From positions 96,001 to 160,000 of the forward strand of contig CAWDVE010000012.1 in the NCBI GenBank assembly GCA_963805625.1: a stretch of DNA of 64,000 bases. The letters are read 5' to 3'. The notes beneath the pieces are model-generated. The model searched no databases. It was given only the letters and a program-made list of their open reading frames with translations, and was not told the DNA's origin. The position numbers and the translations under genes are program-made. This document shows positions 26,345 to 62,186 of this stretch, in pieces. The stretch is from an uncultured Candidatus Rokubacteria bacterium. GTDB lineage: Bacteria; Methylomirabilota; Methylomirabilia; Rokubacteriales; DASRDR01. Every line of letters begins with the position of its first letter. The first letter of the stretch is position 1.

Positions 26345-26798
26345 TCCCGGTGTGTTCCTTCCCCTCGCGAGGGCCGCCCGCCGCGCTCGCTCATCTTGCC
26401 CCGTCAGACCCCGCGCGGCGGCGGTGAGCTGTTTCCCCTTGAGCCTCCACGCCCGCCGAGAACCACGGCGCGGGGACTCTTCCACTGCGGTCGCCCGGCC
26501 ACTGGGCCGTCGAGTCGCCCCGCGCAACACCTTTCAGGGCCTTCGACTCAACCCTATGATCATAGGCCACCTCGGGCTCTCGTTTCCTGGCGGATTTAGC
26601 GAGCATTTACAGTAGCTTACACGGTTGTCCCGGGTAAGTGCTGCTCGGGCCACGTCCCGACCCTCCCCCGACACCAGCGGGCTCGGACACCCCCCACACG
26701 CTGAAGGCGGGATCCTCGGGGACTCGCACGGTGGGCCCAAGCCGGCGCCGGACGATAACCCGGACCTTTCGAGATGGCGCGGACGTGAGCATGAGGCT

Positions 26799-26842
26799 TG
26801 GCGCGCCTGAAGGGAATCGAACTCGGACCCACGGCTTAGAAG
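26799..26842 (-). repeat. Degenerate att copy of the tRNA-Arg 3' half (outermost)
   Basis: TGGCGCGCCTGAAGGGAATCGAACTCGGACCCACGGCTTAGAAG versus 63535-63579: about 3 substitutions plus a 1-nt deletion. Confidence 0.85.
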
Positions 26843-27144
26843 CTCCGATCCGGGCGCGACGCCCCCAGCGTCCTCGGGCCAACCCCATGATAGTACGCAC
26901 TCGCGGCCTCACGGCCTTTGGGGCGAGTTGGGGCCCGTTGGCCCTGGTTCCCGGACAGAACCCGGACAGTAACCGGGCCAATCCGATCTCGTCGCGACCA
27001 ACCGTCTGACCCCCGAGACTCCTCGACCCGCGCCCTAGCTCCGACCAGATCGAGGTCCAGTCATCCGGGGCCGGGGGGTCATTTGACGCGGTCCAGCACC
27101 TCCCGGTACGCTCCTGCCGTCCCTTCCGTCGAGCTGGGGGTGCG

Positions 27145-28299
27145 ATGACGCTCACGCTCCGCGTCATTACAGTCGCGATCCTTACCCGTCTCACTTCGCC
27201 GTTCCGCGGGGAGGCCGAGCGATGCTTCTGTTTCGGCGCCGCCTTCGCCGGCGGTTCGCCAAAATCCCCACCCCGCCGCGCCGTCACGCTGCCTCAGCCG
27301 GAGGCGCGCGCGAGAATCTCTCGGCTCCGCGGCACAGTCATCCTCGCGCTCGGCCTCCTCCTCGCGGCGCCCGCCGCCGCGCAATACCCGGGCAAGGTGT
27401 ACCGGATTGGGATGCTGCTTCACACGGACAATCCGTCCGATTCCGCCCGAATCGCCTTCCGGGAGGGTCTCCGGGCGCTCGGCTGGGTCGAGGGCCAGAA
27501 CTACATGCTCGAGCCCCGGTTCGCGGAAGGGCAGGCGGACCGGTTTCCGGCCCTCGCCGCCGAGCTCGTCCAGCTCAAGGTGGACGTCATTGTCACCGCC
27601 GGCCCTCCACCGACCCGAGCGGCCAAGGATGCGACGAAGACGATTCCCATCGTCATGGCGACCCACGGCGACCCGGTCGGGCACGGCGCCGTGGCCAGCC
27701 TGGCGCGACCCGGCGGCAACATCACCGGCCTCAGCAGCATGGCCGGCGACCTGGAGACGAAGCGGCTCGAGCTGCTGAAGGGGATCGTGCCCGGGGCGGT
27801 CCGCGTTGCATACCTCTGGGTGGCGCCCGTCACGAACGTAGACCCGTGGCTGGTCCGGAGCGGTGTCGGCGCGGCGGCCCGCACGCTGGGCGTTCAGCTC
27901 CAGCACGTCGGGGCGCGTGATGCCAGCGACCTTGACGCCGCCTTTCCGGCCATGACGCGTGACCGTATCGACGCGGTCGTCGTCTCGAACCAGCCGTTCC
28001 AGTACGCCCACCGCGCCCGGATCACGGAGCTGGCGGCAAAGTACCGCCTACCGGCGATGTACGAGATCCGGGACTATCCCGACGTCGGCGGGCTCATCTC
28101 GTACGGCACGTACTTCCCTGAACTCTTCCGCCGCGCCGCGAGCTACGTCGACAAGGTCCTGAAGGGCGCCAAGCCCGCCGACCTGCCCATCGAGCCGCCC
28201 ACGAAGTTTGAGCTAGTTGTGAACCTCAGGACGGCCAAGGCCCTCGGGTTGACGATCCCCCCAGCGGTCCTGCGGCAGGCCGACGAGATCATCGAGTGA
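27145..28299 (+). CDS. ABC transporter substrate-binding protein (ABC_sub_bind type), array copy 1
   Basis: [48 protein letters not shown]. The true start is probably near 27310, where a canonical start codon is lacking. Confidence 0.88.
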   Translation: MTLTLRVITVAILTRLTSPFRGEAERCFCFGAAFAGGSPKSPPRRAVTLPQPEARARISRLRGTVILALGLLLAAPAAAQYPGKVYRIGMLLHTDNPSDSARIAFREGLRALGWVEGQNYMLEPRFAEGQADRFPALAAELVQLKVDVIVTAGPPPTRAAKDATKTIPIVMATHGDPVGHGAVASLARPGGNITGLSSMAGDLETKRLELLKGIVPGAVRVAYLWVAPVTNVDPWLVRSGVGAAARTLGVQLQHVGARDASDLDAAFPAMTRDRIDAVVVSNQPFQYAHRARITELAAKYRLPAMYEIRDYPDVGGLISYGTYFPELFRRAASYVDKVLKGAKPADLPIEPPTKFELVVNLRTAKALGLTIPPAVLRQADEIIE

Positions 28300-29279
28300 T
28301 GGACCGGCGCGCGTTCGTCCGTGCGCTGGGCCTGGGCATCCTCGCCCGGCCCATGGCCGCCGAGCCGCAGCCCGCTAAGGTCGCCCGCGTCGGGTATCTC
28401 TCGAGCGGCGTATTCGCACGGACGGATCCGGTCGAGGGGGAACTCCTGCGGGGGCTCCGCGAGCAGGGGTACACCGAAGGCCAGAACCTCGCCATCGAGT
28501 ACCGCTCAGCTGAGGGGCGCAACGAGGCCTTCCCGGACCTGGCCGCGGAATTGGTCCGACTCAAGGTGGAAGTCATCGTGGCCCACTCGGCGCCGGCGAC
28601 GCTGGCGGCCAAGCAGGCGACGACCACGATCCCCATCGTGCTGCTGAACGTCGCGGACCCCGTCGGGGTGGGGCTGGTCGCCAGCCTGGCGCGCCCGGGC
28701 GGCAACGTCACCGGGGTGTCGAGCCAGGCCGCCGACTTTACCGCCAAGCTCCTGGAACTGGCCAAGCAGGCGGTGCCGCGGCTCGACCGGGTGGCCGTCA
28801 TCACGACCCCGACGAATCCGGCCCTGGCCCCGCGCGTGAGGGACCTCGAGGCAGCCGCCTCGGCGCTCGGGATCACGCTCGACTCCTTTGGAGTGGGCGG
28901 GCCGCCGGAGATCCAGCAGGCGTTCCCGGCGATGACCAAGAGGGGGACTCACGCGGTCGTGGTACTGGCGGACAACCTCATCTGGTTTCACCGCGCGCAG
29001 ATCCTCGATCTGGCCACCCGAAGCCATCTCCCGACCATCTGCATGTTCAAGGTGTGGGCCGGCGCGGGATGTCTCCTGGCCTATGGGCCGAGCCTCGCCC
29101 ACATGTGGTATCAGGCGGGCGTGTTCGCGGGCAAGCTCCTGAATGGCGCCAAGCCTGCCACCCTTCCCGTCGAGCAGCCCACGAAGTTCGAGCTAGTCGT
29201 GAACCTCAAAACCGCCAAGGCGCTCGGTCTCACGATTCCGCCCGCGGTGCTCGCGCGAGTGGATGAGGTCATCCAATAA
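28296..29279 (+). CDS. ABC transporter substrate-binding protein, array copy 2
   Basis: MDRRAFV signal, [36 protein letters not shown]. Confidence 0.92.
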   Translation: MMDRRAFVRALGLGILARPMAAEPQPAKVARVGYLSSGVFARTDPVEGELLRGLREQGYTEGQNLAIEYRSAEGRNEAFPDLAAELVRLKVEVIVAHSAPATLAAKQATTTIPIVLLNVADPVGVGLVASLARPGGNVTGVSSQAADFTAKLLELAKQAVPRLDRVAVITTPTNPALAPRVRDLEAAASALGITLDSFGVGGPPEIQQAFPAMTKRGTHAVVVLADNLIWFHRAQILDLATRSHLPTICMFKVWAGAGCLLAYGPSLAHMWYQAGVFAGKLLNGAKPATLPVEQPTKFELVVNLKTAKALGLTIPPAVLARVDEVIQ

Positions 29280-30281
29280 TGAACCGACGTGTTTTCGTCC
29301 TTGGCTCCCTCGGCCTCCTTGCCGCGCCGCTCGCCGCCGAGGCGCAGGCGGTGCCGAGGGTGTACCGGATCGCCCTCATCGTCAGCCTCGCGCCGGTCGG
29401 GGAGATGACGGAATCGGCAAACCCGGCGCTCCGCGCGTTCTTCGGGGAGCTGCGGAGCCTGGGCTACGTCGACGGCCAGAACCTCGTCGTCGCGGCGGTC
29501 CGCCCTCGGGCGTCCGGAACGCTTTCCCGAGATCGCGGCGGAGGTGGTGCGCCTCAATCCTGACCTCATCGTGGTGGGCCCCAACCGGATCGCCCGCGCG
29601 TTTCGGGCCGCGACCAGCACGATTCCCACCGTCGGCGCGGGCCTCAGCTTCCCGGTGGAGTACGGGCTCGCCGTGAGCCTGGCGCGGCCCGGCGGCAACC
29701 TGACCGGCATCACGGATGATGCGGGCCCGGAGATCGCCGCCAAAGCGCTTGAGGCGCTCGCGGAGGCGGTGCCGGGCACCGCCCGGGTGGCGTATACCGC
29801 GACGACCACTATCTGGAATGGGCCAATGGGACAACTGCTGCGAGCTGGCGCTCAACAGCGTGGTGTCACCCTGGTCGCCGCCTTGATGGATGGCCCATTC
29901 CTGGAGGCCCAGTATCTGGAGACGTTCCGGACCATCACGCAGACCGGCGCGGAGGCGGTGCTCGTCGGCCCCACCGGTGAGCACTGGGGCAACCGGCGTC
30001 TGATCGCCGAGCTGGCCTTACGGAACCGGCTCCCGACGATGGCCCCCTCGCGGGAGTTCGTCGAGGCCGGCGGTCTCATGGCCTATGGCGTCAGCACGCC
30101 GGACAACTGGCGACGTGCCGCCCTGTACGTGGACCGTATCCTGAAGGGAGCTAAGCCTGGTGACCTTCCGTTTGAACAGCCCACGAAGTTCGAGTTGGTG
30201 ATCAACATGAAGACCGCCAAGGCCCTCGGCCTCACGATCCCCCCGGCGGTGCTCGCTCGGGTCGACGAGGTGATCGAATAG
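29279..30281 (+). pseudogene. ABC transporter substrate-binding protein, array copy 3 (frameshifted near 29500-29540)
   Basis: The N-half (ORF 29279-29563) and C-half (ORF 29544-30281) lie in different frames and together form one SBP. Confidence 0.85.
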
Positions 30282-31283
30282 GTGAACCGCCGTACGTTCG
30301 TGGCGGGCTGCCTCGGTCTGCTGGGCGCACCACTCGCCGCCGAGGCGCAGTCGGCGGGAAAGCGATACCGGATCGCGTTCCTCTCGAACGATGGACCGCT
30401 CCCGACGATGTGCGTCCCCGACCCGAGCGACGTGGGATTCCGAGGCTTGCGAGACGGGCTTCGCGAGCTAGGCTATCGGGAGGGTGTCCAGATCACGTTC
30501 GAGTGCCGCTCGGCCGAGGGCAATTACAGTCGGCTGCCCGAGCTCGCCCGCGAGATCGTCCGGGCCGGTCCGCACGTGATCGTCGCTTCCTCCTCCCCGG
30601 CGTCGCTGGCCGCAAAAGCGGCGACCGGCACGCTTCCCATCGTGTCCGTGTACACGGCGGATCCTGTCGATCTCGGTCTGGTGGCGAGCCTGGCGCGCCC
30701 GGGTGGAAACGTGACCGGCATCTCGGCGCTCGCGGCAGATTATGTGGCGAAATGCTTGCAGCTCTTGAAGGAGACGGTTCCTCGAGCCACGCGCATCGGC
30801 GTGCTCGGGCACGGTGAGAATCGGACCTTCCGTATCTACCAACGGGAGCTGGAGCCCGCCGCGACAACTCTCGGGCTGCATCTCAAGTTCCGCCGGCTGG
30901 CGAAGGTCGAGGACATCGACAGCGACGTTGCCGCGCTCGCGAACACGGCCCCCAGCGCGGTGCTCGTGATGCACCAGCCGTTCACGTTCGTGCACCGGGG
31001 ACGGGTCGTTGAAGCGCTCGGCAAGCGACGTCTCCCCGCGATGTTCGGGAGTCGTGAAGCGGTCGAGGCAGGCGGGCTGATGTCCTACGCCGCCAGCGTG
31101 GGCGAGGTGTTCCGGCGGTCGGCCGTGTACGTCGACAAGATCCTCAAGGGCGCGAAGCCCGCCGACCTGCCCGTCGAGCAGCCCACCAAGTTCGAGTTGG
31201 TCATCAACAGGCGGACCGCGAAGGCCCTCGGGCTCACGATCCCGCCGGCCGTGTTGGCGCGGGCGGATGAGGTAATCGAGTAG
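30282..31283 (+). CDS. ABC transporter substrate-binding protein, array copy 4
   Basis: Same family motifs; starts immediately after the previous stop. Confidence 0.92.
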   Translation: MNRRTFVAGCLGLLGAPLAAEAQSAGKRYRIAFLSNDGPLPTMCVPDPSDVGFRGLRDGLRELGYREGVQITFECRSAEGNYSRLPELAREIVRAGPHVIVASSSPASLAAKAATGTLPIVSVYTADPVDLGLVASLARPGGNVTGISALAADYVAKCLQLLKETVPRATRIGVLGHGENRTFRIYQRELEPAATTLGLHLKFRRLAKVEDIDSDVAALANTAPSAVLVMHQPFTFVHRGRVVEALGKRRLPAMFGSREAVEAGGLMSYAASVGEVFRRSAVYVDKILKGAKPADLPVEQPTKFELVINRRTAKALGLTIPPAVLARADEVIE

Positions 31284-31353
31284 TGGACCGGCGCGCCTTT
31301 GTCGTTGGCACCCTCGGCCTCCTCGCCGCGCCGTTCGCTGCTGAGGCGCAGCC
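31283..31353 (+). pseudogene. Orphan SBP signal-peptide segment (5' end of an emptied array slot)
   Basis: Translates VDRRAFVVGTLGLLAAPFAAEAQP, then diverges from the family. Confidence 0.8.
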
Positions 31354-31415
31354 AGAGACAAAGAGGTCGCCTACTGCACGCTTCACAGATCAACTTCATC
31401 AGAGGCAGGGCCTCC

Positions 31416-31874
31416 ATGCCTGAGATCAAGACCGAGTTTCTGTTCACGATCGCCTTTGAAGTTCAAGTCTTCAACCTCGGCGACACGCCCCATGGCGGCC
31501 GGCGCATCGTCCGGCTCGGTACCGGCAGCTTCGAAGGACCGAAGCTCAAGGGCACGGTGTTACCGGGCGGTGGCGGCTGGTCGCTCATGCGCCGCGATGA
31601 TGTGCTGGAGATCGGCGGCCACGGCCTGGCCCTCGAGACGGACGACAAGCAGCACATCTACATGACCTGGAAGGGATTTCGCCACGGCCCGAAGGAGGTT
31701 ATTGATCGTCTCAATCGCGGTGAGACGGTCGACCCGGAGACGTACTATTTCCGCACCACGCCATACTTCGAGACGAGCTCGGAAAAGTACGGCTGGATGA
31801 ACCGCATCTGCTCGATCGCCTCCGGCTCGCGCACGGCGAGCGGGCGGACCTTCCAGGTGTTTCAGGTGTTGTAA
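31416..31874 (+). CDS. DUF3237 domain protein
   Basis: GDTPHGGRRI, GSFEGPKLKGTVLPGGG, LETDD, YYFRTTPYFET...YGWMN. Confidence 0.85.
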   Translation: MPEIKTEFLFTIAFEVQVFNLGDTPHGGRRIVRLGTGSFEGPKLKGTVLPGGGGWSLMRRDDVLEIGGHGLALETDDKQHIYMTWKGFRHGPKEVIDRLNRGETVDPETYYFRTTPYFETSSEKYGWMNRICSIASGSRTASGRTFQVFQVL

Positions 31875-31901
31875 GGGGATGCAGGTATGAGCTGCGGACC
31901 C

Positions 31902-31976
31902 CTCAAGACCTCGAAGGCCCTCGGCCTGACGATCCCCCCGGCGGTCCTCGCGCGGGCGGATGAGGTCATCGAGTGA
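31902..31976 (+). pseudogene. Orphan SBP C-terminal segment (3' end of the emptied slot)
   Basis: Translates [24 protein letters not shown] and overlaps the next start exactly as intact copies do. Confidence 0.85.
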
Positions 31977-32947
31977 TGGACCGGCGAGCCTTCGTCGCTG
32001 GCACCCTGGGCCTCCTCGCCGCACCGCTCGCTGCCGAGGCGCAGTCGGCGGTGAGAACATACCGAGTTGGCCTCCTCGCCGGAGGATCGCCGCCGTCCCA
32101 CCGTGCACCATTGACGGAGGCGTTGCGCGAACTGGGGTATGTCGAGGGCCAGAACCTTCTCATTGAGAGCCGCTACGCGGAGGGGCGGCCCGAGAACTTG
32201 CCCAGCCTTGCCGCTGACCTGGCCCGGCTGAAGGTGGACGTGATCGTGACCGTCGCGACGCCCGCAACCGCAGCGGCCAAGGATGCCACCGCCACGATCC
32301 CGATCGTCATGACCGACGTGGGGGACCCTGTAGCGACTGGACTCGTCGCAAGCCTCGCTCGACCGGGTGGGAACCTCACGGGACTGTCGATTGCGGGGTC
32401 AGCGATCCCCAAGAAGGCGTTGGAGGTGCTCAAGGAAGCGGTGCCCTCCCTGACCCGGGTCGCCGTCGTCAGGAACCCGACCAATCCTGCGCAGGAACTC
32501 GGCTATCGGGAGATGGAGGCCCCCGCGAAGGCTTTGGGTGTCGCGCTGAGACCGATCGATGGGATCTCGGGGGCGGATCTCGACCGTGTCTTCACCGACG
32601 TCCGTGGGCACGATCCTGACGCGCTTCTCGTTCTGCCACTGCATGCGAGGCTCTCCGACCTGCGGAAGATCGCGGCCTTCGCGGTGAGGAACCGATTGCC
32701 GGCGTCCTCGCTGCAGGCCGGGTCTGCGGAAGCTGGGTTCCTTATGGCGTGCTTCCCCCGAGCGGGCCATCGCTTTCCCCGTGTGGGCGTGTACGTCGAC
32801 AAGATCCTGAAGGGCGCGAAACCCGGTGACCTGCCGATCGAGCAGGCGACCGAGTTCGACCTGGTCATCAACCTGAAGACCGCCAAGGCGCTCGGCCTCA
32901 CGATCCCGCCCGCGGTGCTGGCGCGGGCGGATGAGGTCATCAAATAA
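31973..32947 (+). CDS. ABC transporter substrate-binding protein, array copy 5
   Basis: Family motifs as above. Confidence 0.92.
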   Translation: MMDRRAFVAGTLGLLAAPLAAEAQSAVRTYRVGLLAGGSPPSHRAPLTEALRELGYVEGQNLLIESRYAEGRPENLPSLAADLARLKVDVIVTVATPATAAAKDATATIPIVMTDVGDPVATGLVASLARPGGNLTGLSIAGSAIPKKALEVLKEAVPSLTRVAVVRNPTNPAQELGYREMEAPAKALGVALRPIDGISGADLDRVFTDVRGHDPDALLVLPLHARLSDLRKIAAFAVRNRLPASSLQAGSAEAGFLMACFPRAGHRFPRVGVYVDKILKGAKPGDLPIEQATEFDLVINLKTAKALGLTIPPAVLARADEVIK

Positions 32948-33918
32948 TGGACAGGCGAGGTTTCATCGCTGGCGCCGTCAGCGCGCTCGCCGCGCCGCTT
33001 GCGACCGACGCGCAAGAGCCCACGGCGGCTCACATCGGGATGCTGTCGTTGGCCAGCCCGGAAAGCATGAGCCCCCTGTTGGGCGCCTTCAGGCAAGGAA
33101 TGCGTGAGCTGGGGTATGACGAGGGTCAGAACCTGACTATTGAGGTCCGCTATGCTGCGGGAAGGGCTGAACGACTCCCCGCTTTGGCAGCGGAGTTGGT
33201 GAGCCGCAAAGTGGCAGTGATCGTGGCGGGCTCATCGCAGGCCGTTAGTGCGGCCCAAAGGACAACGACGGTTATTCCGATTGTTGCAGCAGGCGGCGAC
33301 TTGCTGGGCATTGGCGCGGTCAAGAGCCTGGCGCGGCCCGGCGGCCATATTACCGGGCTATCAAATCTCACGACCGATTTCATCCCCAAGCTCCCCGAAC
33401 TTCTTCTGACTGCAGTGCCGAAGCTCTCACGTGTGGCCGTGTTGTGGAATCCATCCCACACGAACCCCACCGTGTTGAAGAAGCTTCAGATGGCGACACG
33501 GCAGGTGAGCGGAAACTCTTTCCTGATGGAAGCGCAAACGCCCTCGGATATTGAGAACATGTTTGCAGGCACGCGCGAGCAACATATTGAGGCGGTCATC
33601 GTTTCGCCTGATGGATTTTTCCTCCAGCAAGCGAACCAGATCGCGGGTTTGACGACGAAATATAGACTACCCTGCATATCTCCGTACCGCGAAATCACTG
33701 AAAACGGCGGTTTGATGAGTTACGGCCGAAATGTCGCCAAGAGTTTTCAACGCGCGGCAACGTATGTGGACAAGATCCTGAAGGGCGCCAGACCGGGCGA
33801 CCTGGCCATTGAGCAGCCAACGACGCTCGAGCTGATCGTGAACCTGAGGATCGCCAAGGCCCTCGGCCTGACGATCCCACCCGCGGTCCTCGCGCGGACG
33901 GACGAGACCATCCAGTAA
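32947..33918 (+). CDS. ABC transporter substrate-binding protein, array copy 6
   Basis: Family motifs; the centre is visibly AT-richer than the ends. Confidence 0.92.
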   Translation: MDRRGFIAGAVSALAAPLATDAQEPTAAHIGMLSLASPESMSPLLGAFRQGMRELGYDEGQNLTIEVRYAAGRAERLPALAAELVSRKVAVIVAGSSQAVSAAQRTTTVIPIVAAGGDLLGIGAVKSLARPGGHITGLSNLTTDFIPKLPELLLTAVPKLSRVAVLWNPSHTNPTVLKKLQMATRQVSGNSFLMEAQTPSDIENMFAGTREQHIEAVIVSPDGFFLQQANQIAGLTTKYRLPCISPYREITENGGLMSYGRNVAKSFQRAATYVDKILKGARPGDLAIEQPTTLELIVNLRIAKALGLTIPPAVLARTDETIQ

Positions 33919-34893
33919 GTGGACCGGCGCGCGTTCGTCGCTGGTACCCTGGGCCTCCTCGCCTCGCCGCTCGCCGCCGACGCACAGCAGGCGGCGGGGA
34001 GGATCTACCGCATCGGCTTCCTCTCGACCTCGGGTAGCGGGGGAGCCAACCTGCGGAGGACCTTGCTCGATGGCTTACGGGAGTGGGGCTACGTCGAGGG
34101 CCGGAATCTCGAGGTCCTGCTTCGCCATGGGGATGGCAAGATCGACCGGCTGCCCGAGGCGGCGACCGAGCTCGTGCGCGCCAGGCCCGACGTCATCATC
34201 ACATCCATCAACGCCACGACGCACGCGGCCCGGAAGGCGACGCAGACCGTTCCGATCGTGATGGTCATCGGGAGTGACGTCGTCCGGCAGGGGTTCGTCG
34301 CGAGTCTGGCGAAGCCGGGCGGTAACGTCACCGGGCTGACATTCGAGGCCGACACCGGACTGATGGCGAAGCGCTTCGAATTCGTGAAGGAAACGATCCC
34401 TGGGGTCTCGCGCATCACGGCCCTGTGGGACCCCGGGCAGGATGCCGCGTCCGGCAGGTCCCGGTTGGAAGAGGCTGCGGCGGCCGTGAGTGCGCGCCTC
34501 ATCCTCCTCGAGTTCCAAGATGATCTGGACGCGCTGTTCGCCACGGCGGTGCGGGAGGGCGCCCAGGCCCTCGTCACCGGCGGTGGTGCGCGCATGTTCC
34601 GTCGCCGCCAGGAACTCGTCGACTTGGCGGCGAAGAATAGGCTGGCTGACTTCCATTACACGCGCGAATTCGTCGAAGCGGGCGGCTTGATGTCCTATGC
34701 GCCAAGCCTACCCGGGAACTACAAGCGCGCCGCCACCTATGTCGACAAGATCCTCAAGGGCACCACCCCCGCGGATCTGCCCGTGGAGCAGCCCACGCAG
34801 TTCGAGCTCGTGATCAACCTGCGGACCGCGAAGGCGCTCAGTGTCACGATCCCACCGGCGGTGCTCGCGCGAGCGGACGAAGTGATCAACTGA
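33919..34893 (+). CDS. ABC transporter substrate-binding protein, array copy 7
   Basis: Family motifs; GTG start directly after TAA. Confidence 0.92.
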   Translation: MDRRAFVAGTLGLLASPLAADAQQAAGRIYRIGFLSTSGSGGANLRRTLLDGLREWGYVEGRNLEVLLRHGDGKIDRLPEAATELVRARPDVIITSINATTHAARKATQTVPIVMVIGSDVVRQGFVASLAKPGGNVTGLTFEADTGLMAKRFEFVKETIPGVSRITALWDPGQDAASGRSRLEEAAAAVSARLILLEFQDDLDALFATAVREGAQALVTGGGARMFRRRQELVDLAAKNRLADFHYTREFVEAGGLMSYAPSLPGNYKRAATYVDKILKGTTPADLPVEQPTQFELVINLRTAKALSVTIPPAVLARADEVIN

Positions 34894-35039
34894 CCGCCCT
34901 CGCCCTCGGCCCCGCGTATCGCAACCCGGCGCTTGCATGGCGTCGAATCCGCGCGGTTAGGGGACCGCCTCGCCCCGCAGATTCACATGTGGACCTACGG
35001 GAGGATCGAACCCTCGCACGGTGACTCCTCATCCCGGCT

Positions 35040-35060
35040 GGTATGATGTACCATCATACC
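35040..35060. promoter_or_regulatory. Palindromic operator upstream of the TA operon
   Basis: Perfect inverted repeat GGTATGATG-TAC-CATCATACC, 14 bp before the antitoxin ATG. Confidence 0.7.
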
Positions 35061-35074
35061 GGAGGGTGCCTTGG

Positions 35075-35317
35075 ATGCCAAAGACGAAAGTCGCCATCAC
35101 ACTTGACACGGAACTCGTGCAGAACCTGGACGATCTCGTGGCACAGCGACGGTTCGCCAACCGCAGCCAGGCGATTGAAGCCGCCCTCGCGGAGAAGCTG
35201 GCCCGCCTTGCCAAGACGCGTCTCGCACAAGAGTGCGCGAAGCTTGATCCCGCAGAGGAGAAAGCGCTGGCGGAAGAAGGCCTTGCGGGTAGCGCCGAGA
35301 CATGGCCCGAATACTGA
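35075..35317 (+). CDS. CopG/RHH family antitoxin
   Basis: KTKVAITLD...NRSQAIEAAL ribbon-helix-helix; overlaps the toxin gene. Confidence 0.85.
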   Translation: MPKTKVAITLDTELVQNLDDLVAQRRFANRSQAIEAALAEKLARLAKTRLAQECAKLDPAEEKALAEEGLAGSAETWPEY

Positions 35318-35640
35318 GGGGCGAGATTCGCTGGGCTGACCTCAACCCGGTGCGCGGTCGCGAGCAAGCTGGTCTCCGGCCTGTACTGATCCTGAGCCAC
35401 GACGTGTTCAACGACCGATCGGGCACCGTCATCGCCGTCGCGCTGACCAGCCAGGAGCCCCGCGCCGGCTTCCCGCTCACGCTAGAGAGCAAGGCTCCTG
35501 GCTTGCCGAAGCGCTCCTGGGTCAAGATCAGTCAGATCCGCACGCTCGCGGTGGAACGCATTGGCCGACGACTTACGCGAGTGCCCGACGAGGAACTCAC
35601 GCGGGTCGTCGAAGGGCTGAACGAGATCATCGCGCCCTGA
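35302..35640 (+). CDS. mazF: PemK/MazF family endoribonuclease toxin
   Basis: RGEIRWADLNPVRGREQAGLRPVLILS, QIRTLAVERI. Confidence 0.9.
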   Translation: MARILRGEIRWADLNPVRGREQAGLRPVLILSHDVFNDRSGTVIAVALTSQEPRAGFPLTLESKAPGLPKRSWVKISQIRTLAVERIGRRLTRVPDEELTRVVEGLNEIIAP

Positions 35641-35865
35641 TCTCAGATATCGCCTCCCACAACCGGGCGATGCCGCGCTCAGCGGTCCGTATCCCGATAG
35701 GTTCCCCGGCAGGCCACCACGAAGCTCGCCGAGTTCGTAGCGGCCCAGCCCACCGAGGCGAAGGTGGTGCCCCTCGCCCGGGTGGCTCAGGCTGGGGGCC
35801 GACGAGAACCCGGACAATTCTGGTGCGGGGTCGGGGAAGAGCCCTACGGAAGTACGCGGAAAGGC

Positions 35866-35909
35866 TGGCGCGCCTGGAGGGAATCGAATCCCCGACTCAC
35901 GGCTTAGAA
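35866..35909 (-). repeat. att copy of the tRNA-Arg 3' half (middle)
   Basis: 44 bp with 2 mismatches to 63535-63578. Upstream AAGTACGCGGAAAG is also shared with the tRNA flank at ~63518. Confidence 0.9.
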
Positions 35910-36099
35910 AGCATGCGGGTTGTCGAAGAATAGCGCCCCGCAATCGCAACTTACGCCGCGCCATTGTTGGCGTATCGTCGCCTCATGCGGCGGCCGAGTG
36001 GTGGCCGAGTAGGGGCCGAAATATGGCCGTCTGGCGACGGCGTAAGCGACAGCTCGGGGCCAGGCGTCGGCGCTAAGAAGGACCGACTGCGCGACCCGC

Positions 36100-36340
36100 G
36101 CGCGCCGTGATAGATGACCAAGTTGACCGCGGGCCGAGGCGTGATCGCCGCGAGCTTTTCCATGAACTCAATCGGGTCGAAGACCAGATGGGACGGCCCG
36201 GAGCCGCACGCGGTCTCGGGCCAGCGGGGGACGGAGAAGATAGCGGCCGAGCTGTTCCAAGCATCCTGCCGTAAGCGCCTGCGTGTGATTGCCACGGTGG
36301 CGGACCCCATCGCCGTGCGTCAGATTCTCGCCGCCCCGGC
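36100..36340. pseudogene. IS91-like (Y2) transposase remnants on opposite strands
   Basis: Minus strand: LVFDPIEFMEKLAAITPRPAVNLVIYHG. Plus strand: CRKRLRVIATVADPIAVRQIL. Confidence 0.6.
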
Positions 36341-39359: not shown

Positions 39360-42300
39360 TCATGTCGCCGCCCGCATCTCCGCCTCGGCCTGCTCCAGCC
39401 AGAAGGTCATGCCCATCTCGCGGTACATCGTCGTCGCGGCGGCGAGGTGCTCGCGGGCCTCCTCCCGCTTGCCGGCGCGCTGGTAGAGCTTGCCGATGCC
39501 GAGGTGGCAGTGGGCGACGAGGGGGCGCATGCCGAGCTCGCCGGCGAGGGCCAGCGCCCCGCGGTAGTGACCTTCAGCCTCGGCAGCGTCCTCGGCGCCG
39601 CCGGCGGACGCGACGTCACCGGCGAGGCAGAGGGCGTGGGCCTCGCTGCCCCGCGCCCCTAGCCGGCGGCTGAGCGTCAGCGCCTCTCGAGCGTGGCGGG
39701 CGGCCTCGGCGATCCGCCCGGCTGAGAGGCAGGTCATCCCCGCGCACAGCAGAATGAGCGTCGGCCAGCTGTGAGTCTGGCGTCTGCGGAACTCCTCGAC
39801 AGCGCCCGCGACCAGCGGGAGCGCCTCGTCAGCCCGGCCGGCGAGGGCGTAGGCGGCGCCGAGGGCCGCGGCGACGACCGGTATCCCGATGACGATCTGC
39901 CACGATCGGCAGAGGTCGAGGCTGCGCTCGAGGACCCGGATCGCGCGCGGGAGATCCCCGCGACGGAGGTGGACGCGCCCGAGACTGGACAACCCGAAGT
40001 GCAGCGTGTAGGGATGATCGGCCGCTTCCGCGATCTGCACGGCACCCTCGGCGTGCCCGATGGCCTCGTCGAACCGGCCGAGCTGGGAGAGCGCGTCGGC
40101 GAGCCAGGCGCCTGACGCCGCCGACTGAATGGCGGGCCCGCCAAAGCGCTCGGCGCGCAGGTCGCCCTCGAGCGCCACGTTTCGCTCGAGCAAGGTGGCC
40201 GCGGCGCTGAACTCGCCCCGGGTGAGGTGCGTCAAGCCCAGCAAGGTCGTCGCGACCACCTCGATCGAGCGATCGCCGAGGGTGCGCGCGAGGCTCAGGG
40301 CCTCCCGCCCGAATCTGAGGGACTCGTCGTACTCGCCCGTGATCCGGCACTGGGTCACCATGAAGGTGGCGATCCACGCGAGCCGGCGCGGGTCGCCCAG
40401 CGTCCGGGCGAGCCCCTCTGCCTCGTGGAGGTACTCCCCGATGCGCGCATACTCGCCGAGCGGGAGGAGCGCGTTTCGGAGGTCGAGCCGGAAGTCGATG
40501 GCCAGCTCGGTCGTCTCTCGGGTCTCGGGGAGATGGCGGAGGGCCCCGAGGGCCTGCTCCAGGTGGGCCACGGCCTCGCGGTTGGCGCCCCGCGCCATGG
40601 CTCGGAGCCCCGCCTGGCGGAGATACGCGACCGCCTTCTCCCACAACTCCCCGCGCAGGGCGTGATGGGCCAGCTGTTCCGCCTGCTCGGCGAGGCGCTC
40701 GGGCGAGAGCCGCTCGAGGGCCTCGGTGATCCGAGCGTGCAGGGCGCGCTGCCGGTCGTGGAGCAGTCCCTGGTACGCCACCTCGTGCGTGAGTGCGTGC
40801 TTGAACGTGTACTCAAGGTCCGGAAAGAGCCGGGTCTCGTAGAGGAACTCCGCGGCCTGGAGGTGCGCGAGCCCGCGTCGAAGGCCCTCCTCCGGAAGAT
40901 CGGCCACCGCCTGGAGCAGGGGGAACGCCACCTCTGTCCCGATGACGGACGCGGTTTGGAGCAGCAGTTTCTCGTCGGCGGGCAGGCGGTCGATGCGGGC
41001 GGCCAGAATCGCCTGCACCGTCGTGGGCACCTGGATGCTGGGCAGGGCCGTTCCCAGGCGGTAGGCCCCGCGCTCGCCGATCAACGCGTGGGTCTCGACC
41101 AGCGTGCGGACGCTCTCCTCCAGGAAGAACGGGTTCCCTTCCGTCCGCTCGATCAGGAGCGGAGGGAGCGGACGCAGGCTGGGGTCGTCCCCCAGGAGGA
41201 CGTGCAGGAGGGCCTCCGCGCCCTCGGGCGGCAACGGGTCGAGCCGGAGCTGGGTGTAGAACATCCGGCTCCCCCAGCCGTGCTGGTATTCGGGGCGGTA
41301 GTTGACGAGGAGAAGGAGCCGGGCGGTCGGGAGGCCCTCGATGAGACTGTCCAGCAGGGCCTGGGTCTCGGAATCGATCCAGTGCAGGTCCTCGAACACG
41401 AGGAGCAGGGGCTGCCCCTGCGCTTCGCGCAGCAGGAGCCGCTTGATCGCCTCGAGCGTCCGCTGGCGCCGCTGCGGGGGGTCGAGCGCCTCCCACGCAC
41501 CGTCCTCCACTGACACGTCGAGCAAGGCGAGGAAGGCGGGGAGGCTCGGCTCCAGGCTGCGGTCGAGCGCGAGGAGCTTGCCCATCACCTTCTCGCGCAT
41601 CCGTCGCGGGTCGTCACGCGCCTCGATCTGGAAGTACGCCTTGAGCAGGTCAACCACGGGCAGATACGGGGTCGCCTGCCCGTACGAGGCCGAGCTGGCG
41701 TGCAGGATGAGCCAGCCCGCGCTGCGATGGGAGTGCGTCACCTCCCAGACGAGCCGGGACTTCCCCACGCCCGGCTCCCCGACGAGGGCCACGACCTGGC
41801 CGTGCCCGGAGGCCGCGCGCCCGAGCGCCTGGCGCAGCTGCTCCACCTCGCGGTCCCGGCCGACGAACGTGGTCAGCCCCCGGGCGGCCGCCGCCTGCAG
41901 CCGCGTCCGGACCGGTCCCGCGCCGGTTACCTCGTAGACCTCGATGGGCGCGCCGAGGCCCTTGACCGACATCGGGCCGAGCGGCGTCACCCCGACGTAG
42001 CCCTCGGCCAGCCGGAGCACCTCGGCCGTCAGGAGGATCGACCCGGGTGCGGCCATCTGTTCCATCCGACCCGCCAGGTGGGTCGTCTGCCCGACGGCCG
42101 TGTACTCCATGTGGAGGTCGCTGCCGATCGAGCGGACGACGACCTCTCCCGAGTTCAGCCCCACTCGGATCTGGACCAGCACGCCCTCGGCCCGTCGCAC
42201 AGCCTCGGCGTACTGCTTGACCGAGTCCTGCATCCGGAGCGCCGCGTAGCACGCGCGCACCGCGTGATCCTCGTGGGCGGCGCCCCGAAGAGGGCCATGA

Positions 42301-42708
42301 TGCCATCGCCCATGACCTGGTTGACGGTGCCCTCGTAGCGGTGAACCGCCTCCATCATCCGCTCGAGGACCGGGTCGAGGAGCTTCCGCGCCTCCTCGGG
42401 GTCGCGGTCGGCCAGCAGCTCCATCGAGCCCTTCAGTCGGCGAACAGCACGGTGACCTGCTTGCGCTCACCTTCAAGGGCGTTCCGGGACGTGAGGATCT
42501 TCTCGGCGAGGTGCTTCGGGGTATAGACCTGGGGCGCCAGAGATGGACCGGGTGAAGAGTCTAGCGGCTTGCCGCACTCCAGACAGAACTTCGCGCCGGC
42601 CGGCAGCGCGGTGCCGCACTGGGCGCACGTGGGCGCAAGCCGGCTCCCGCATTCCAGGCAGAGCTTCGCCGGCGGCGGGTTCTCGTGCTGGCACCGGGGG
42701 CAGTGCAT
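39360..42708 (-). pseudogene. Double zinc ribbon + class III adenylate/guanylate cyclase + AAA ATPase + TPR protein, frameshifted near 42435 and 42275
   Basis: CPRCQHEN..CLECG; EGERKQVTVLFAD / GDGIMALFGAP / HEDHAVRAC / RVGLNSGEV split over three frames; GEPGVGKSRL Walker A; FEDLHW. Confidence 0.88.
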
Positions 42709-43095: not shown

Positions 43096-44201
43096 TTGAT
43101 CTTTGACTATGTAATGGATACACGACTCACGTCCACGGCAGGTCCGATGCGAGGATGCAGGACCACAGGAGGTGCTGGGACCCATGGACCCGACGGAACG
43201 ACCGCCGTAGGTGGGCATCCAATTGACGAAGGTGTTCCGGTGCGCCATTGGCCAAGTCATGCTTGAACTTGGTCCAGACGAACTCGTCGGGATTCAGCTC
43301 GGGGGCATAGGCCGGGAACCGATGCACGTGCAGCCGCGTGTGTCGGGTCAAGAACGCCGTGACGTCGGCGCGCCGGTGAATCATGCCACCATCCCAGAGC
43401 AGCTCGACCGGTCCGCGGAGGTGCCGCAGGAGGTGGCGCAGAAACACCACGACCTCCGCCCCGGTGATGTTCACGGGGTGGACGTGCATGTACAAGCCCA
43501 GGCGGGCGCGCTGGGGGGACACCGACAGGGCAGAAATCGCCGACAGCTTGTCGCGCGTGTAGCTGTGGCGTACCCGCGGCGTACACCCCACCGGCGCCCA
43601 GGTCTTCCGCATGTTCGGGATCAACAGGAAGCCGCTTTCATCGAGAAACACGAGGTGGGCCCCACGTCGGGCGGCGTTTTTTTATATCCGGCCACGTGTG
43701 CGTCTTCCAGTGTTCGATGGCCGCCTCGTCCCGCTGGCGCGCGCGCCGTTCGGGTTTCTGCCAACTCCAATGCAGGCCGTGCCGCAAGAGCTTCCACACG
43801 CCGACCGGACTGTAGCGTACGTCGAACTCCGCCTCGATCAGCGTGCCGATGCGCTTGAGCGTCCACAACTCGGTCGTGTGTCCGGCGGCCCGCGCGCCTT
43901 GGAGCAGCAACCGCCGGAGGCGCGCCTTCTGGGTCTCCGTCAACCGGGGCGGGCGGCCCGGCGTGGGCCGGGCGCGTAATCCGTTCCGCCGGTCGCGCCG
44001 ATACGCTTGCTTCCAGCGCACGACGGAGCTCACGGCCGCCCGGACCAAGCGGGCGACTTCGCGATATGGCGTGCCCACCCGCAGGAGCGCGATAGCCCGG
44101 CGTCGACGCTTTTCCAGTTGCTCGGCCGTGCCAGAAGGTCTCATGCCGATCAGCATAGTGAACCACAGGCTAACCGTATGCATTCTTTAGTAAATGGTCA
44201 A
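43096..44201 (-). mobile_element. IS630 family element 1
   Basis: TA duplication at 43094-95 and 44202-03; imperfect terminal IRs TTGATCTTTGACTA / TTGACCATTTACTA. Confidence 0.9.
43127..44144 (-). CDS. IS630 transposase (orfA/orfB joined by a -1 frameshift at A7, 43677-43683)
   Basis: HTH orfA ending DIKK; orfB with FLDESG, WDG and YAPELNPDE. Confidence 0.85.
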
Positions 44202-44224
44202 TATGTCGACTTCTATGAAGCGGC

Positions 44225-44645
44225 CCCCCGTGTCAAGCGATAGCGGCGTGTGTGGTGTCCCTCTCGTCCTCCCGTCCTAGGTCAGCGGTCCACGGCGATG
44301 GGACCTACGGTTCCCGCGAGGTTCAGTCATCCTTCTATTCGCGCTCGTCAGGGGCGAGCGGGGCTCGCCGGCGCATGAGGGGAGTCGAAGGGTGGGGACG
44401 CCATCTATGCAACGGCGCTCGAACAGCGGCCAAGTCGACATACGCGCTCACCCACCCGTCGAACCTGCGCGAGACCGAGGTGCCGCTCATCTCACCGACG
44501 CGGACTATGCCTGACTTCTCAGGGCTCGGAGCCTGACTCGGGTGAATCGCGATCGCCCAGTGGGCCCAGGACGCGTCCGTTGACCTGGACCGCTATCTGG
44601 GTATTCCCGAAATCGGCTATTTTCGCGTTCGCCATGCGCCGCCCG
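44225..44645 (-). ncRNA. Candidate bridge/seek RNA in the IS1111 3' non-coding region (limits approximate)
   Basis: Contains ATAGAAG (44332-44338) and TCCCATC (44297-44303) matching the predicted circle junction, and TATGTCGACT (44433-44442) and GTGGGT (44450-44455) matching the target flanks. Confidence 0.55.
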
Positions 44646-45689
44646 TCAGACGGGAGCAGCCGCCTCGGCCACGTGGCGCGGCACGACCCGTGGAGTATAC
44701 GTCGTCCCGTCGCGCAGCATCGCGTAAAGGATGCCGGCCAGGCGACGGGCCAGCGCGACGACGGCGATCTTCTTGCCACGGCGCGTGGCGATGCCCATGG
44801 CCCACCGCCGCAAGGCGACCGTCCGGGGATCACGCAGGCGCAGGATCGACACGGCCGCCTGGACGAGCAACCAGCGCATCCGGGTATTGCCAGCCTTGGT
44901 GATCCGCCCGCGTCGTTGACTCTCCCCCGAGCTCAGCTCCCTCGGGACGAGGCCGAGATACGCTTCCACGTCATGCGCCCGGTGGAAACGCCCGGCGTCG
45001 TCGATCGTGGCCACGAAGGCCGCCGCGGTCACCGGTCCCACACTGGGGACTGTCCGCAGGCGCTGGACTCGCACATCTGGGCGCGTGACGGCCTCGATCA
45101 CCTCGTCCGAGTAGGCGAGCTGCTGATTGACGGGCCGCATCACCGCCAGCAGGGGCGCCACCTCCGAGAGCAGGCGGCCCGGCAGCGGCAGCGCCACGAC
45201 GCGCCGGATGAACGTGTCCGCGCTCCCCGTGGGCACGCGCCACCCGTGGCGGCGCAGAAGAGCCCGGATCAGGGCGATGTAGCCGGTGCGCGTCCGAACC
45301 AAGGCATCGCGCACCGCCAGGCGCCCCCGCACATGCCGCTGCGCGTCCGAGAGCCGATGCGCCGGGCGGTACGCCCCCAGCAGGCAGGCCTCCGCCAGCG
45401 CCCGGGCATCCCGCCGATCGGTCTTGACCTTCCGGGTCCGCGTGGCAGACATCGGCGCGAAGTTCGGGTCCGCCACCACGACCTCGTGGCCCAAGGCCTC
45501 AAGGCAGCGCGCCACCCACTCGCTCTCCGTTGAGGCCTCGACGAGGATCCGGGCTCGCGGCCGGCCGCCCAGCACCTCCGCGAACCGCTCGGGCTCGGTG
45601 CGGATCCGGCATTCGCTCAATTGGCCCCCCTCGCGGAGGGTGCAGATCTGGCTTTCCTTCTTGTGCAGGTCGATGCCAACATAGTCCAT
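44646..45689 (-). CDS. IS110 family recombinase/transposase
   Basis: YVGIDLHK, VEAST, KTDRRDA (DEDD RuvC domain); VPSVGP, YLGLVP..SSG, ITKAGN. Confidence 0.93.
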   Translation of the reverse strand: MDYVGIDLHKKESQICTLREGGQLSECRIRTEPERFAEVLGGRPRARILVEASTESEWVARCLEALGHEVVVADPNFAPMSATRTRKVKTDRRDARALAEACLLGAYRPAHRLSDAQRHVRGRLAVRDALVRTRTGYIALIRALLRRHGWRVPTGSADTFIRRVVALPLPGRLLSEVAPLLAVMRPVNQQLAYSDEVIEAVTRPDVRVQRLRTVPSVGPVTAAAFVATIDDAGRFHRAHDVEAYLGLVPRELSSGESQRRGRITKAGNTRMRWLLVQAAVSILRLRDPRTVALRRWAMGIATRRGKKIAVVALARRLAGILYAMLRDGTTYTPRVVPRHVAEAAAPV

Positions 45690-45810
45690 GGCTGGCCCCC
45701 TCGTGCGCCCGTGAGCGCGTGTTCGCTCAGTGGGGCACTGTATGCCACCACGTCGAGCTGCGGGTCAGCCGCTTCATCCCATCTACCCACGTTCCCCGGG
45801 AGGTGTGCCC

Positions 45811-46269
45811 GTGCCAGTCGATCGCACGTATGCAACTGAGAACGATGCACAGCGGGAGCGGCTTCGCGCCCTTGTCCGGAGCCTCGGCGACCAGGACCTC
45901 GCGCGCCCCATGGAGGCCGGCTGGACGGTGGCGGCAGTCCTCGCGCACGCCGCCTTCTGGGATCAGCGGATTGTCGTCCTGCTCGACCAGTGGGAGCAAC
46001 GGGGCCCCTCGTGGACCCCGCCCCTCGAAGTGGAGCGCGATGGCGACTGGATCAACGATGCCGCGAAGGCGCTCTGCCTGGCCCTCCCGCCTCGCGTGGC
46101 GGCCGACCTCGCCGTCTCGGTCGCCGAGGCGGTGGATCGGCGGGTGGCCGCGGTGAGCGACGCCATCATCGAGGCGAATGCGCGGGCCGGCTCTCCGCTC
46201 AACTGGCACCGCGCGGAACACCGGCGCGAGCACCTGGACGAGATCGAGCGAGCGCTCCGCGGCGCCTGA
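45811..46269 (+). CDS. DinB/MDMPI superfamily protein
   Basis: GWTVAAVLAHAAFWD and HRREHLDEI motifs; GGAGG RBS. Confidence 0.8.
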   Translation: MPVDRTYATENDAQRERLRALVRSLGDQDLARPMEAGWTVAAVLAHAAFWDQRIVVLLDQWEQRGPSWTPPLEVERDGDWINDAAKALCLALPPRVAADLAVSVAEAVDRRVAAVSDAIIEANARAGSPLNWHRAEHRREHLDEIERALRGA

Positions 46270-46297
46270 TCCCCCGATGCGCTTCTCCGGGCCCCCG

Positions 46298-46323
46298 GGG
46301 GAAACAGCTGAGAACGAGCTCTA
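46298..46323 (+). repeat. dif/Xer-like repeat copy 2, left part (continues at 47398-47409)
   Basis: Reconstructed GGGGAA ACAGCTGAGAA CGAGCT CTATGTCGACT ACCC; 37 of 38 bp identical to copy 1. Confidence 0.65.
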
Positions 46324-47395
46324 CTAGTCAGTCCGACACTTGGCGCATGAAAGAAGGAGCGAACCAGGCCGGTCGCGCTTGAATACCCGCCAGATCCACC
46401 TGGACGCGGCTTCGAAGCGATTCGTCTTTCCGCAACGGGGTCTTGCTGACGCCTTGGCGCTTGAGGTGGTTCCAGACGAACTCGTCGGGGTTCAACTCCG
46501 GCGCATAGCCGGGCAGGAAATGCAGCTCGAGGCGACCGGCAAGCTGCTGGACGTACTGCGCGGCTACGTTGGCGATGTGCGCGGGGTGGCCGTCGAGGAC
46601 GAGGAACACGGCGCGCTTGCGCCCGCGCATGAAGTGCGTCAGCAACTCGACGAACCGTGGGGCGTTGAGCCGTTCGGTGTAGATCTCGTACCAGAAGGCG
46701 CCGCGGGCGTTGACGGCGGAGATGGCGCTCACGCTCTGGCGCCGGCCGCTCGTGGGGACCTCGGGCGTCTGCCCCCGCAGACCCCACGTCCGCCCGAGGA
46801 CTTGGTCGGAACGGACCCCGGCCTCATCGAGGAAGAAGATCTTCGCGCCGACGCGCTTGGCCCGCGCGCGCAGGCGGGGGAACACCGCCGTTTTCCAGTG
46901 CTCGATCGCCACGGGATCGCGCTCGTAGGCGCGGCGCAACGGTTTCTGGGGCGTGATGTCCAACTCGGTGAGGAGGCGACCGACGGCGGTCACGCCCAGC
47001 CGCACGCCGAACTTCTGTGCGATCAGCGCCGCTACAATCTGCCGAGTCCAGAGGCCAAAGTCGAAGCCGTACTGGCGCGGGTCCTTGCCATTGATCCATC
47101 GCCGGACCTGGAGCTTCTGGCGCGGCGTCAGGGCCGGCTGCCGCCCCGGATGTGTTCGCGCGGTGAGCGCCGCTGGGCCGCGTCGCCGCACCGCGGTCAG
47201 CCATTTGTAGATCGTGGTGCGACACAACCCATAGCCTTTGATGACGTCGCTCGGCGCTTCGCCTTCCTGCACGCGCCGCACGGCCATGCGCCGGATTGTC
47301 TCGGAGGTCTCGTGCGACAGGGTCCGCCCGTCGATCCGCATAACCCTTCATATCACAATCCGAGCGCAGTGTAGCCTAAAGACAGGACTGGTTAG
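46324..47395 (-). mobile_element. IS630 family element 2
   Basis: TA duplication at 46322-23 and 47396-97; terminal IRs CTAGTCAGTCC / CTAACCAGTCC. Confidence 0.9.
46328..47341 (-). CDS. IS630 transposase (single ORF; possible frameshift in the last ~15 codons)
   Basis: FLDEAG, VLDGHPAH, YAPELNPDE. Confidence 0.9.
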   Translation of the reverse strand: MRIDGRTLSHETSETIRRMAVRRVQEGEAPSDVIKGYGLCRTTIYKWLTAVRRRGPAALTARTHPGRQPALTPRQKLQVRRWINGKDPRQYGFDFGLWTRQIVAALIAQKFGVRLGVTAVGRLLTELDITPQKPLRRAYERDPVAIEHWKTAVFPRLRARAKRVGAKIFFLDEAGVRSDQVLGRTWGLRGQTPEVPTSGRRQSVSAISAVNARGAFWYEIYTERLNAPRFVELLTHFMRGRKRAVFLVLDGHPAHIANVAAQYVQQLAGRLELHFLPGYAPELNPDEFVWNHLKRQGVSKTPLRKDESLRSRVQVDLAGIQARPAWFAPSFMRQVSD

Positions 47396-47530: not shown

Positions 47531-47620
47531 CGCCGAGATGCACAGGAACCGCTAGCTACGGTTTCAGCCACGGTGAGCCCGTCGTGACCAAAATGGTGTT
47601 CGCTAACTATCGAAAAAGGC

Positions 47621-47665
47621 TGGCGCGCCTGGAGGGAATCGAACCCCCGACCCACGGCTTAGAAG
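47621..47665 (-). repeat. att core: perfect 45-bp copy of the tRNA-Arg 3' half
   Basis: Identical to 63535-63579. Confidence 0.95.
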
Positions 47666-49319: not shown

Positions 49320-49635
49320 TGGCACCTCCCTTAGCGCCGTCGGTATACGCTTGGGTGCCCAGTCGGGAGCCACGGCCTTGTACGCGGCGATAGCACCGCG
49401 CATCATGTAGGTACACGCTCCAGGTCCCGTACTGAAGGCGCGGGCGTGATCGGATTCTTATGATAGCGCGTGGCACACCGGGCGAGAAGGACGAAGCCCG
49501 CCCCTCCGGTAGCCGCTGCGCTGTCGCTCGCCTCGGACTGCCAAATCGTAGCGGCGCTTCGACACACGCGGGCTATACTCCGTCCGCCCTGGGCCTCATG
49601 GGCCACGTTCTCGCGGCCGAAACCCGGGAACCGAC

Positions 49636-56908: not shown

Positions 56909-56985
56909 ACCCCTCGTTGCAGGCCGGCGGTCCGGCTCCCTCTCCCGTTCTTACCTCTCTCCGTTCGTACACTGAGGCGAATTAG

Positions 56986-58493: not shown

Positions 58494-58575
58494 TTAGCCC
58501 CACCCGGTATTCGTCGCCGTGAAGAGAGAGATGAGACCGGTACGCTTGGGTACAACTCAAGCACGAGGAGGCGCT

Positions 58576-62185: not shown

Positions 62186-62186
62186 T

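Follow-up and report, generated by a model that had tools for sequence, protein, structure and literature searches.

We favor a reading, drawn from sequence comparison, in which a DUF3237 gene was likely captured once by illegitimate replacement of the body of a substrate-binding-protein (SBP) gene and later, through homology-directed recombination at the conserved gene ends, likely came to move between arrays and between genomes. The gene lies in the window, the 64,000-nucleotide stretch of DNA analyzed here (C12:96001-160000 of its own genome, G000, which comprises 7.27 Mb in 28 contigs with an estimated contamination of 6.3%). Units are shared between genomes that do not share the neighboring sequence, breakpoints fall inside the conserved gene ends (handles), and identity is concentrated at those ends. 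From this we infer homology-directed exchange, probably by RecA on incoming DNA, with rare illegitimate joins for new cargo; recombination of this kind likely needs no dedicated enzyme.

The DUF3237 gene (31416-31874, + strand, 152 aa) is complete. Stubs of a PF04392 SBP gene enclose it, one on the 5´ and one on the 3´ side, within an array of seven stop/start-coupled SBP genes. In a Pfam search, the ORF matched PF11578 (E 3e-36; 124.7 bits against a curated cut-off of 24; profile positions 2-149 of 149), the only such match in G000, bearing out the proposal of the earlier note that a complete DUF3237 gene has replaced an SBP body. The GC content of the gene is 61%, compared with 60-69% for the five SBP genes measured. 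The 5´ stub (31283-31355, +) is a signal-peptide start with a conserved N-core at ~31311-31350 and scores 53 bits with a 5´ handle model; its SBP-type GTG start at 31283 overlaps the TAG of the preceding SBP gene, s4, and translates DRRAFVVGTLGLLAAPFAAEAQ. Stub and linker form a 46-codon ORF (31283-31423, +) whose TGA overlaps the DUF3237 start, making translational coupling to DUF3237 possible; the same overlap is found in G004, and in G001 the ORF is out of frame. The 3´ stub (31902-31976, +) scores 64 bits with a 3´ handle model, for which 2.97 Mb of reversed genome yielded nothing at or above 15 bits. At the end of the stub, the TGA shares bases with the start codon (ATG) of the next SBP gene, s5; a GAGGT ribosome-binding motif lies 9 nt before that ATG, and an in-frame mini-ORF of 29 codons (31887-31976, +; likewise 29 codons in G001) runs through it and stops on the s5 ATG. 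The SBP ends therefore are in register with their neighbors, starts and stops overlapping, as had been described, but the 3´ stub is not intact, being truncated to the last 75 nt of a ~160-nt conserved terminal block.

The seven co-oriented SBP genes occupy ~27.1-34.9 kb on the + strand, with stops and starts overlapping or abutting: s1 (27145-28299, PF04392 type, with the ORF call probably placing the start too early), s2 (28296-29279), the frameshifted s3 (29279-30281), s4 (30282-31283; PF04392 E 1e-45, PDB 3LKV E 7e-37) directly upstream of the DUF3237 unit, s5 (31976-32947) directly downstream, s6 (32947-33918) and s7 (33919-34893), the last gene of the array. The body of s5 has an 82% match in a different array in G003 and that of s6 an 84% match at a separate G003 locus; the close matches of s3, s5 and s6 sit at three separate loci of that genome. 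No permease accompanies the array. G000 carries 33 near-full-length SBP copies, and many copies are broken; across genomes, SBP matches number in the tens in many Rokubacteriales, reaching at least ~32, compared with 0-5 in the other orders of the class that were sampled.

The array is bordered by two copies of a tRNA-Arg 3´ half, a decayed copy on the left (26792-26841, -) and another on the right (35860-35909, -), which enclose the SBP genes and an RHH/PemK toxin-antitoxin pair. Further right are a third 3´-half copy (47615-47664), a tyrosine integrase (62114-63499) and an intact tRNA (63535-63611). We read the copies as nested or stacked islands at one tRNA, with the SBP array in the outermost. 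The RHH antitoxin and PemK/MazF toxin genes (35021-35640) lie directly past the array and have a 91% copy elsewhere in G004. IS genes with Pfam matches to DDE_3, IS110, Mutator and DDE_Tnp_1 are found at 43127-47341 and 54196-61877, and 35951-36310 (-), which has no Pfam match, presumably is a fragment of an IS91-type transposase, judging by motif. A 185-aa ORF at 49403-49960 (-), also without a Pfam match, begins with an in-frame SBP signal-peptide core, as does a TPR protein in a relative (L119:6385-7599), suggesting reuse of the signal peptide by non-SBP proteins.

DUF3237 matches were found in 11 of the 41 genomes searched, and close copies beyond G000 in three of them (88% aa identity in G001 and G004, 78% in G008); the same-genus genomes with this gene are Candidatus Rokubacteria. 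G001 has the whole unit: a 5´ stub, a matching linker, the gene (90% nt identity; 90-91% over the G001 and G004 copies), a matching post-stop linker and a 3´ stub coupled to an SBP gene, with the linker and 3´ stub 72.5% identical to those of the window. The neighbors differ, with an adenylate-cyclase/TPR gene upstream and a downstream SBP body only 55% like s5. G004 retains the left junction only, 78% identical from N-core to ATG and 51% upstream of the N-core, and the G008 copy has no adjacent handle. Contigs of two sequencing runs of another study, P3, cover 31233-31811 (X3, three differences) and 31214-31805 (X4, seven differences) and span the left junction; beyond the s4 3´ handle, 270 nt of the X4 contig do not match the window. 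Runs with small shares were left out, and joints in X3 and X4 at 90% likeness were excluded since their sides are short and they likely are paralogs of other organisms. A metagenome contig (L028) carries a DUF3237 gene (81% aa identity) between two 3´ handles, with junctions different from those of the window. Because G001 has both junctions and the P3 contigs span the left one, the unit is neither a misassembly nor confined to G000. The capture looks like one old event, given the junction sequence common to the copies, with the unit then inherited and moved through crossovers in the handles, and not like repeated capture.

The closest homologs of the gene, beyond the genus copies, are nearly all Alphaproteobacteria among the named relatives (62-86% aa identity). 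The call to find its native context thus was answered for the homologs, but no single native context emerged among DUF3237 relatives: an SBP gene or fragment was present in the fetched flanks of 8 of 34 close genome loci (including G001 and G008), 0 of 46 distant loci and 22 of 80 metagenome loci. In a DUF3237 tree (57 of 90 rows after dereplication), the window clade is apart from the GC-rich DUF3237 copies of the genus, and L001, L002 with L003, L004 and L028 fall in a polytomy, which identifies neither a donor nor an independent capture. GTCCGCT...AGCGGAC palindromic repeats flank DUF3237 and SBP genes at loci of the alphaproteobacterial type (L051-L066 and others); at least two half-sites within 400 nt occur in 33 of 80 metagenome loci, and G000 has the paired pattern at just two places. 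By sequence, the window gene is a full-length member of the DUF3237/UPF0311 family (PDB 4PUX, 3C5O, 3G7G). Characterized DUF3237 proteins are described as including decarboxylases of lignin-derived aromatics (PMC9942872, PMC12607616); in these accounts and a third, the decarboxylases PhcF, PhcG and PinX, and also PhnH, are assigned to the family (PMC9942872, PMC12607616, PMC11969235).

Comparison of SBP genes pointed to exchange at their ends. Bodies were at least 74% alike in 23 SBP pairs among 102 units; 16 of these pairs have no flank in common, five share 57-143 nt on one side only, one shares 497 nt on one side, and the single pair with both flanks in common is a duplicated region within G000. 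As a control, the junction between two genes that we take, from their sequence features, to be uvrB and uvrC was kept in 15 of 15 genomes. For the 18 pairs run, among the alignments listed, similarity sets in either at the N-core or within the 3´ handle upstream; among the same alignments, the position at which it stops inside the 3´ handle varies, lying ~23-70 nt short of the end in one pair and ~140 nt in another. Among 93 full SBP genes, 17 pairs were alike in either half and all 17 were alike in both, so that half-gene comparison gave no inner crossover. Of 4260 non-orthologous SBP pairs, 1311 had an identical run of at least 20 nt within the final 170 nt, compared with 284 pairs within the initial 90 and 78 within the central 710. 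The excess of synonymous codon sharing over expectation was 0.38 in the N-core (10 sites) and 0.21 in the last 22 codons (15 sites), compared with 0.03 in inner codons (80 sites), with p values of 2e-6 and 6e-4 for codon sites and related genomes that are not independent.

A probable rearrangement of this kind is visible in the array itself. In run X1, one contig (record 3) passes without a difference from 29329 straight to 30333, such that exactly s3 is missing and the join falls in an 18-bp N-core identity (29330-29347, +, common with 30333-30350), and record 4 of the run matches 29337-30095, the s3 body, without a difference; the s3-less join is a single contig, and X1 may be the source of the window itself. 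The SBP genes are tandem paralogs whose bodies vary and whose DNA blocks are conserved, and rearrangement breakpoints fall inside the blocks. Perfect identities between the handles of the array are only 8-23 bp, which is short for RecA; recA and comEC are present in the genome.

Cargo other than DUF3237 also lies between handles. An SBP body was lacking for 41 of 152 3´-handle matches in G000 and 34 loci of relatives; because the latter were chosen for holding handles, counts from these loci should not be read as frequencies. Among the 41, L130 is an artifact of a contig end, and 14 have another handle within 2 kb upstream. Four further Pfam families are found between handles, ABM, LCM methyltransferase, TPR and PNPOx, along with three cargo loci without a family. 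ABM genes occur at 10 places in 5 of 41 genomes; the 3´ handle model detected a handle upstream of five and downstream of five, and decayed traces were visible by eye in most others. Upstream sequence was common to only 1 of the 45 ABM pairs, and short downstream sequence to two. At L123 (G000:C16 ~315.8-316.6 kb), an ABM gene is set apart from a gene fragment without annotation by three chained 3´ stubs, and no full SBP gene lies nearby. A methyltransferase gene (92% nt identity) lies mid-array in both G009 and G014, before different SBP genes, and is fused in frame to the stub in G009; a 75% copy in G008 is without a handle. Most cargo is flanked by a 3´ handle on either side, and only DUF3237 and one TPR gene combine a recognizable 5´ handle with a 3´ stub; the 3´ end thus serves as the general handle, with the 5´ end optional.

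The stubs range from 34 to 190 nt, and those of 34-35 nt join foreign DNA at uvrB-uvrC and upstream of ABM copies. Within the hypervariable uvrB-uvrC spacer, we noted SBP 3´ stubs of ~34 nt (L121, G000:C10 ~431767-431800) and ~55 nt (L143, G008); a stub was clear in 2 and a full SBP gene present in 0 of 15 genomes. Of the stop-reaching SBP fragments in G000, 18 of 19 start within the last 190 nt (p 2e-12). The 5´ fragments are short in 7 of 13 cases (p 0.003), above expectation but less so than the 3´ fragments. The adenylate-cyclase/TPR family, used as a control for end-biased fragments, has a conserved 3´ tail too and is not a clean negative control. Adenylate-cyclase/AAA/TPR genes are themselves expanded (39360-42476, -, in the window and ~20 other places in G000), carry a ~200-nt conserved 3´ tail and often precede SBP genes, and possibly are a second handle family. 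Beside some SBP genes, attC-like palindromes were seen by eye (L118 ~6230-6400 and ~7400-7490; G000:C13 ~468000), and some SBP genes may also travel in true integron cassettes.

These data bear on two further suggestions of the earlier note. It had taken the persistence of the ends as support for a DNA-level role, which by itself is no proof, because the ends hold GAGGT and in-frame mini-ORFs overlapping the next start and also are constrained as protein (in an alignment with 3LKV, the conserved part of the protein includes the C-terminal motif). A role as a recombination substrate nevertheless is supported by the comparative data, because the DUF3237 unit recurs with other neighbors and other cargo lies between handles. 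It had also supposed that the array can capture foreign cargo, unless this proved a one-off replacement or misassembly with no other handle-flanked cargo anywhere. The search for such cargo (ABM, LCM methyltransferase, TPR, PNPOx) disposes of that objection, but DUF3237 itself looks like one old capture, and the searches described below found no dedicated machinery.

By the mechanism we propose, the last 35-160 nt of SBP genes and the 35-nt signal-peptide core, whose repetition is visible in the sequence, would act as dispersed short repeats. DNA landing between two handles would become an exchangeable unit, as the shared units with unshared flanks suggest, and the likely agent would be RecA acting on DNA brought in by transformation or by another route. 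Entry of new cargo would be rare, with homology anchoring it at one handle and microhomology making the join at the other. Stubs may persist because only handle-bounded units go on moving and are refreshed by crossovers, and also because they would keep translation of the array coupled. No circle junction was seen.

Homology alone explains poorly why illegitimate joins cluster in the last 190 nt, or why stubs lie at SBP-free places such as uvrB-uvrC. The 3´ handle (last 35-75 bases) could instead be a dedicated coding-sequence site for a putative trans-acting recombinase, nickase or reverse-transcriptase system, which we think unlikely. Such a site predicts units that are fixed at the 3´ end but differ at the 5´ end, as integron-like or one-ended transposition would give, in keeping with the shortness of all but one of the 19 stop-anchored fragments, the 41 of 152 3´ handles without an SBP body, and the 34-35-nt stubs joined to foreign DNA, including at uvrB-uvrC and upstream of ABM. 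Synonymous constraint also is higher in the last 22 codons (0.21) than in the equally protein-conserved block just upstream (0.06), and in G008 a group II intron with an RT gene interrupts the handle at AACC/TGAAG, its 3´ junction recurring in G004. However, no stable hairpin was predicted in 14 of 14 junction folds on either strand (z -1.67 to +0.86), and so no attC-type single-strand hairpin, as judged by folding z-scores. The best dyad scored 6.7 of 11 in 95 gene ends compared with 6.3 in an inner control region, leaving no Xer-type 28-bp dif site with inverted arms above control in those ends. Nor is there a fixed crossover nucleotide: breakpoints vary between ortholog pairs in the alignments listed, and stub left ends are spread over model positions 12-66 with no spike at the intron site.

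The enzymes expected of a dedicated site likewise were missing from the places searched. The genome has no match to the integron integrase TIGR02249 over the cut-off (best 76 bits against 265) and none to RecT with the query used. The 92 ORFs (of 131 candidates) flanking 14 array loci include no tyrosine recombinase and two large serine recombinases; a recombinase acting in trans could still come from the 24 PF00589 matches of the genome. The flanks have no common non-coding motif, only paralog starts and the adenylate-cyclase/TPR gene tail recurring there, and Chi-like 8-mers were not over-represented (ratios 0.95-0.99). No terminal inverted repeats or exact target duplication, as for an insertion sequence or MITE, were found around the unit; the handles are direct repeats, and an exact duplication is rejected because 17 bp is the longest run that the 3´ stub has in common with the s4 end. 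If a dedicated site did exist, Rokubacteria would have a genome-wide integron-like cassette system without an intergenic att site or adjacent integrase, which captures foreign genes and is parasitized by its own group II intron.

The stubs might also have been kept for translation only, as ribosome-binding sites and coupling ORFs, with the cargo a static relic without special mobility. The GAGGT motif ahead of s5, the in-frame 29-codon ORF of the 3´ stub in G000 and G001, the 5´ stub ORF whose stop overlaps the start of DUF3237 in G000 and G004, and the in-frame methyltransferase fusion in G009 all are as this predicts, and no + strand promoter-like site was found in 26600-36000. However, the G001 counterpart of the 5´ stub ORF is out of frame, and a ribosome-binding site needs ~20 nt where stubs have 34-190. 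An ORF of at least 80 aa starts near 20 of 38 stubs, compared with 38% at random positions, and 18 of the 38 have none. The unshared flanks of near-identical units and the changed neighbors of the DUF3237 unit also go unexplained. As a full account, translation is therefore quite unlikely, though it probably contributes alongside recombination.

The intron at the handle raises a further, highly improbable, route, in which introns at the 3´ handle and at other sites recombine, splice and are reverse-transcribed, giving cargo fused at the intron site, a cassette-genesis model reportedly proposed for IIC-attC introns. The window stub and orphan stubs at C11:129996 and L110 begin at or a few bases from the intron site AACC/TGAAG, but most stub boundaries are elsewhere, the G001 copy retains AACC upstream of the site, and the single RT match in G000 is ~19 kb from the nearest stub. 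The introns themselves lie at L133:9975 onward and L019:1-2848 (G008:C32, with an RT/maturase ORF) and at L120 ~7200-8006 (G004:C20); in both genomes they look nested, with two intron-like tails each, a parallel to introns targeting integron attC. Finally, an assembly artifact joining an unrelated gene into a repetitive array that no single run contig compared spans whole has a negligible chance of being correct, given the ~90% identity of G001 (both junctions) and G004 (left junction only) and the X3 and X4 contigs of another study across the left junction.

Returning to recombination at gene ends, if the ends are universal adapters, one rule would explain the SBP expansion, the arrays and the many stubs, and would provide an entry and spread route for genes from other phyla. 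Such a cassette system of gene ends would be missed by integron or att-site finders, and 3´ handle primers or read mining would list the cargo pool of soil.

No description of such a system turned up in open-access literature listings on Rokubacteria, PF04392/COG2984 or orphan SBP arrays. The SBP genes belong to the same family as the PF04392/COG2984 ABC-importer binding proteins (PDB 3LKV, 3LFT, 6HNI), from which the Rokubacteria array differs in lacking a permease and in the 33 near-full-length copies in one genome. Integron cassette arrays (IntI, attI, attC) consist of co-oriented single-gene units with varied cargo, each unit closed by a repeated site. The SBP handles resemble them in their co-oriented single-gene units, repeated terminal site, varied cargo and group II intron at the site, but are without IntI or an attC hairpin and have a variable crossover and a protein-coding site. 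IIC-attC group II introns are described as targeting the repeated site of integrons (PMC3001079).

Other systems are closer in how they recombine. For Vibrio T6SS immunity arrays, homology-facilitated illegitimate recombination has been proposed, with a homologous anchor, an illegitimate join and remnants left behind, at a rate given as orders of magnitude below that of homologous recombination (PMC5361080); as outlined there, it fits the first DUF3237 capture, but a cluster of joins within the last 190 nt is not expected from it. In the S. aureus lpl cluster, a tandem array on a genomic island, a conserved coding stretch is reported as the crossover site (Tsuru and Kobayashi 2008, PMC2568036). 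The crossover described for lpl is central and the unit has two genes, whereas Rokubacteria SBP genes have crossovers at the ends, one whole gene body and no inner mosaics. For the tandem immunity genes tipC (Streptococcus) and esaG (S. aureus), recombination through homology blocks is described as gaining, losing and swapping genes (Garrett et al. 2022, PMC9484751). By that account, tipC and esaG share with our array tandem paralogs, homology blocks near gene start and end and a variable middle, but involve paralog exchange at one locus, whereas in Rokubacteria there are dozens of loci, moves between loci and genomes, and unrelated genes between the blocks. Homology-block shuffling of tandem paralogs thus is known from lpl, esaG and tipC; what is new here is the genome-wide use of handles by unrelated cargo.
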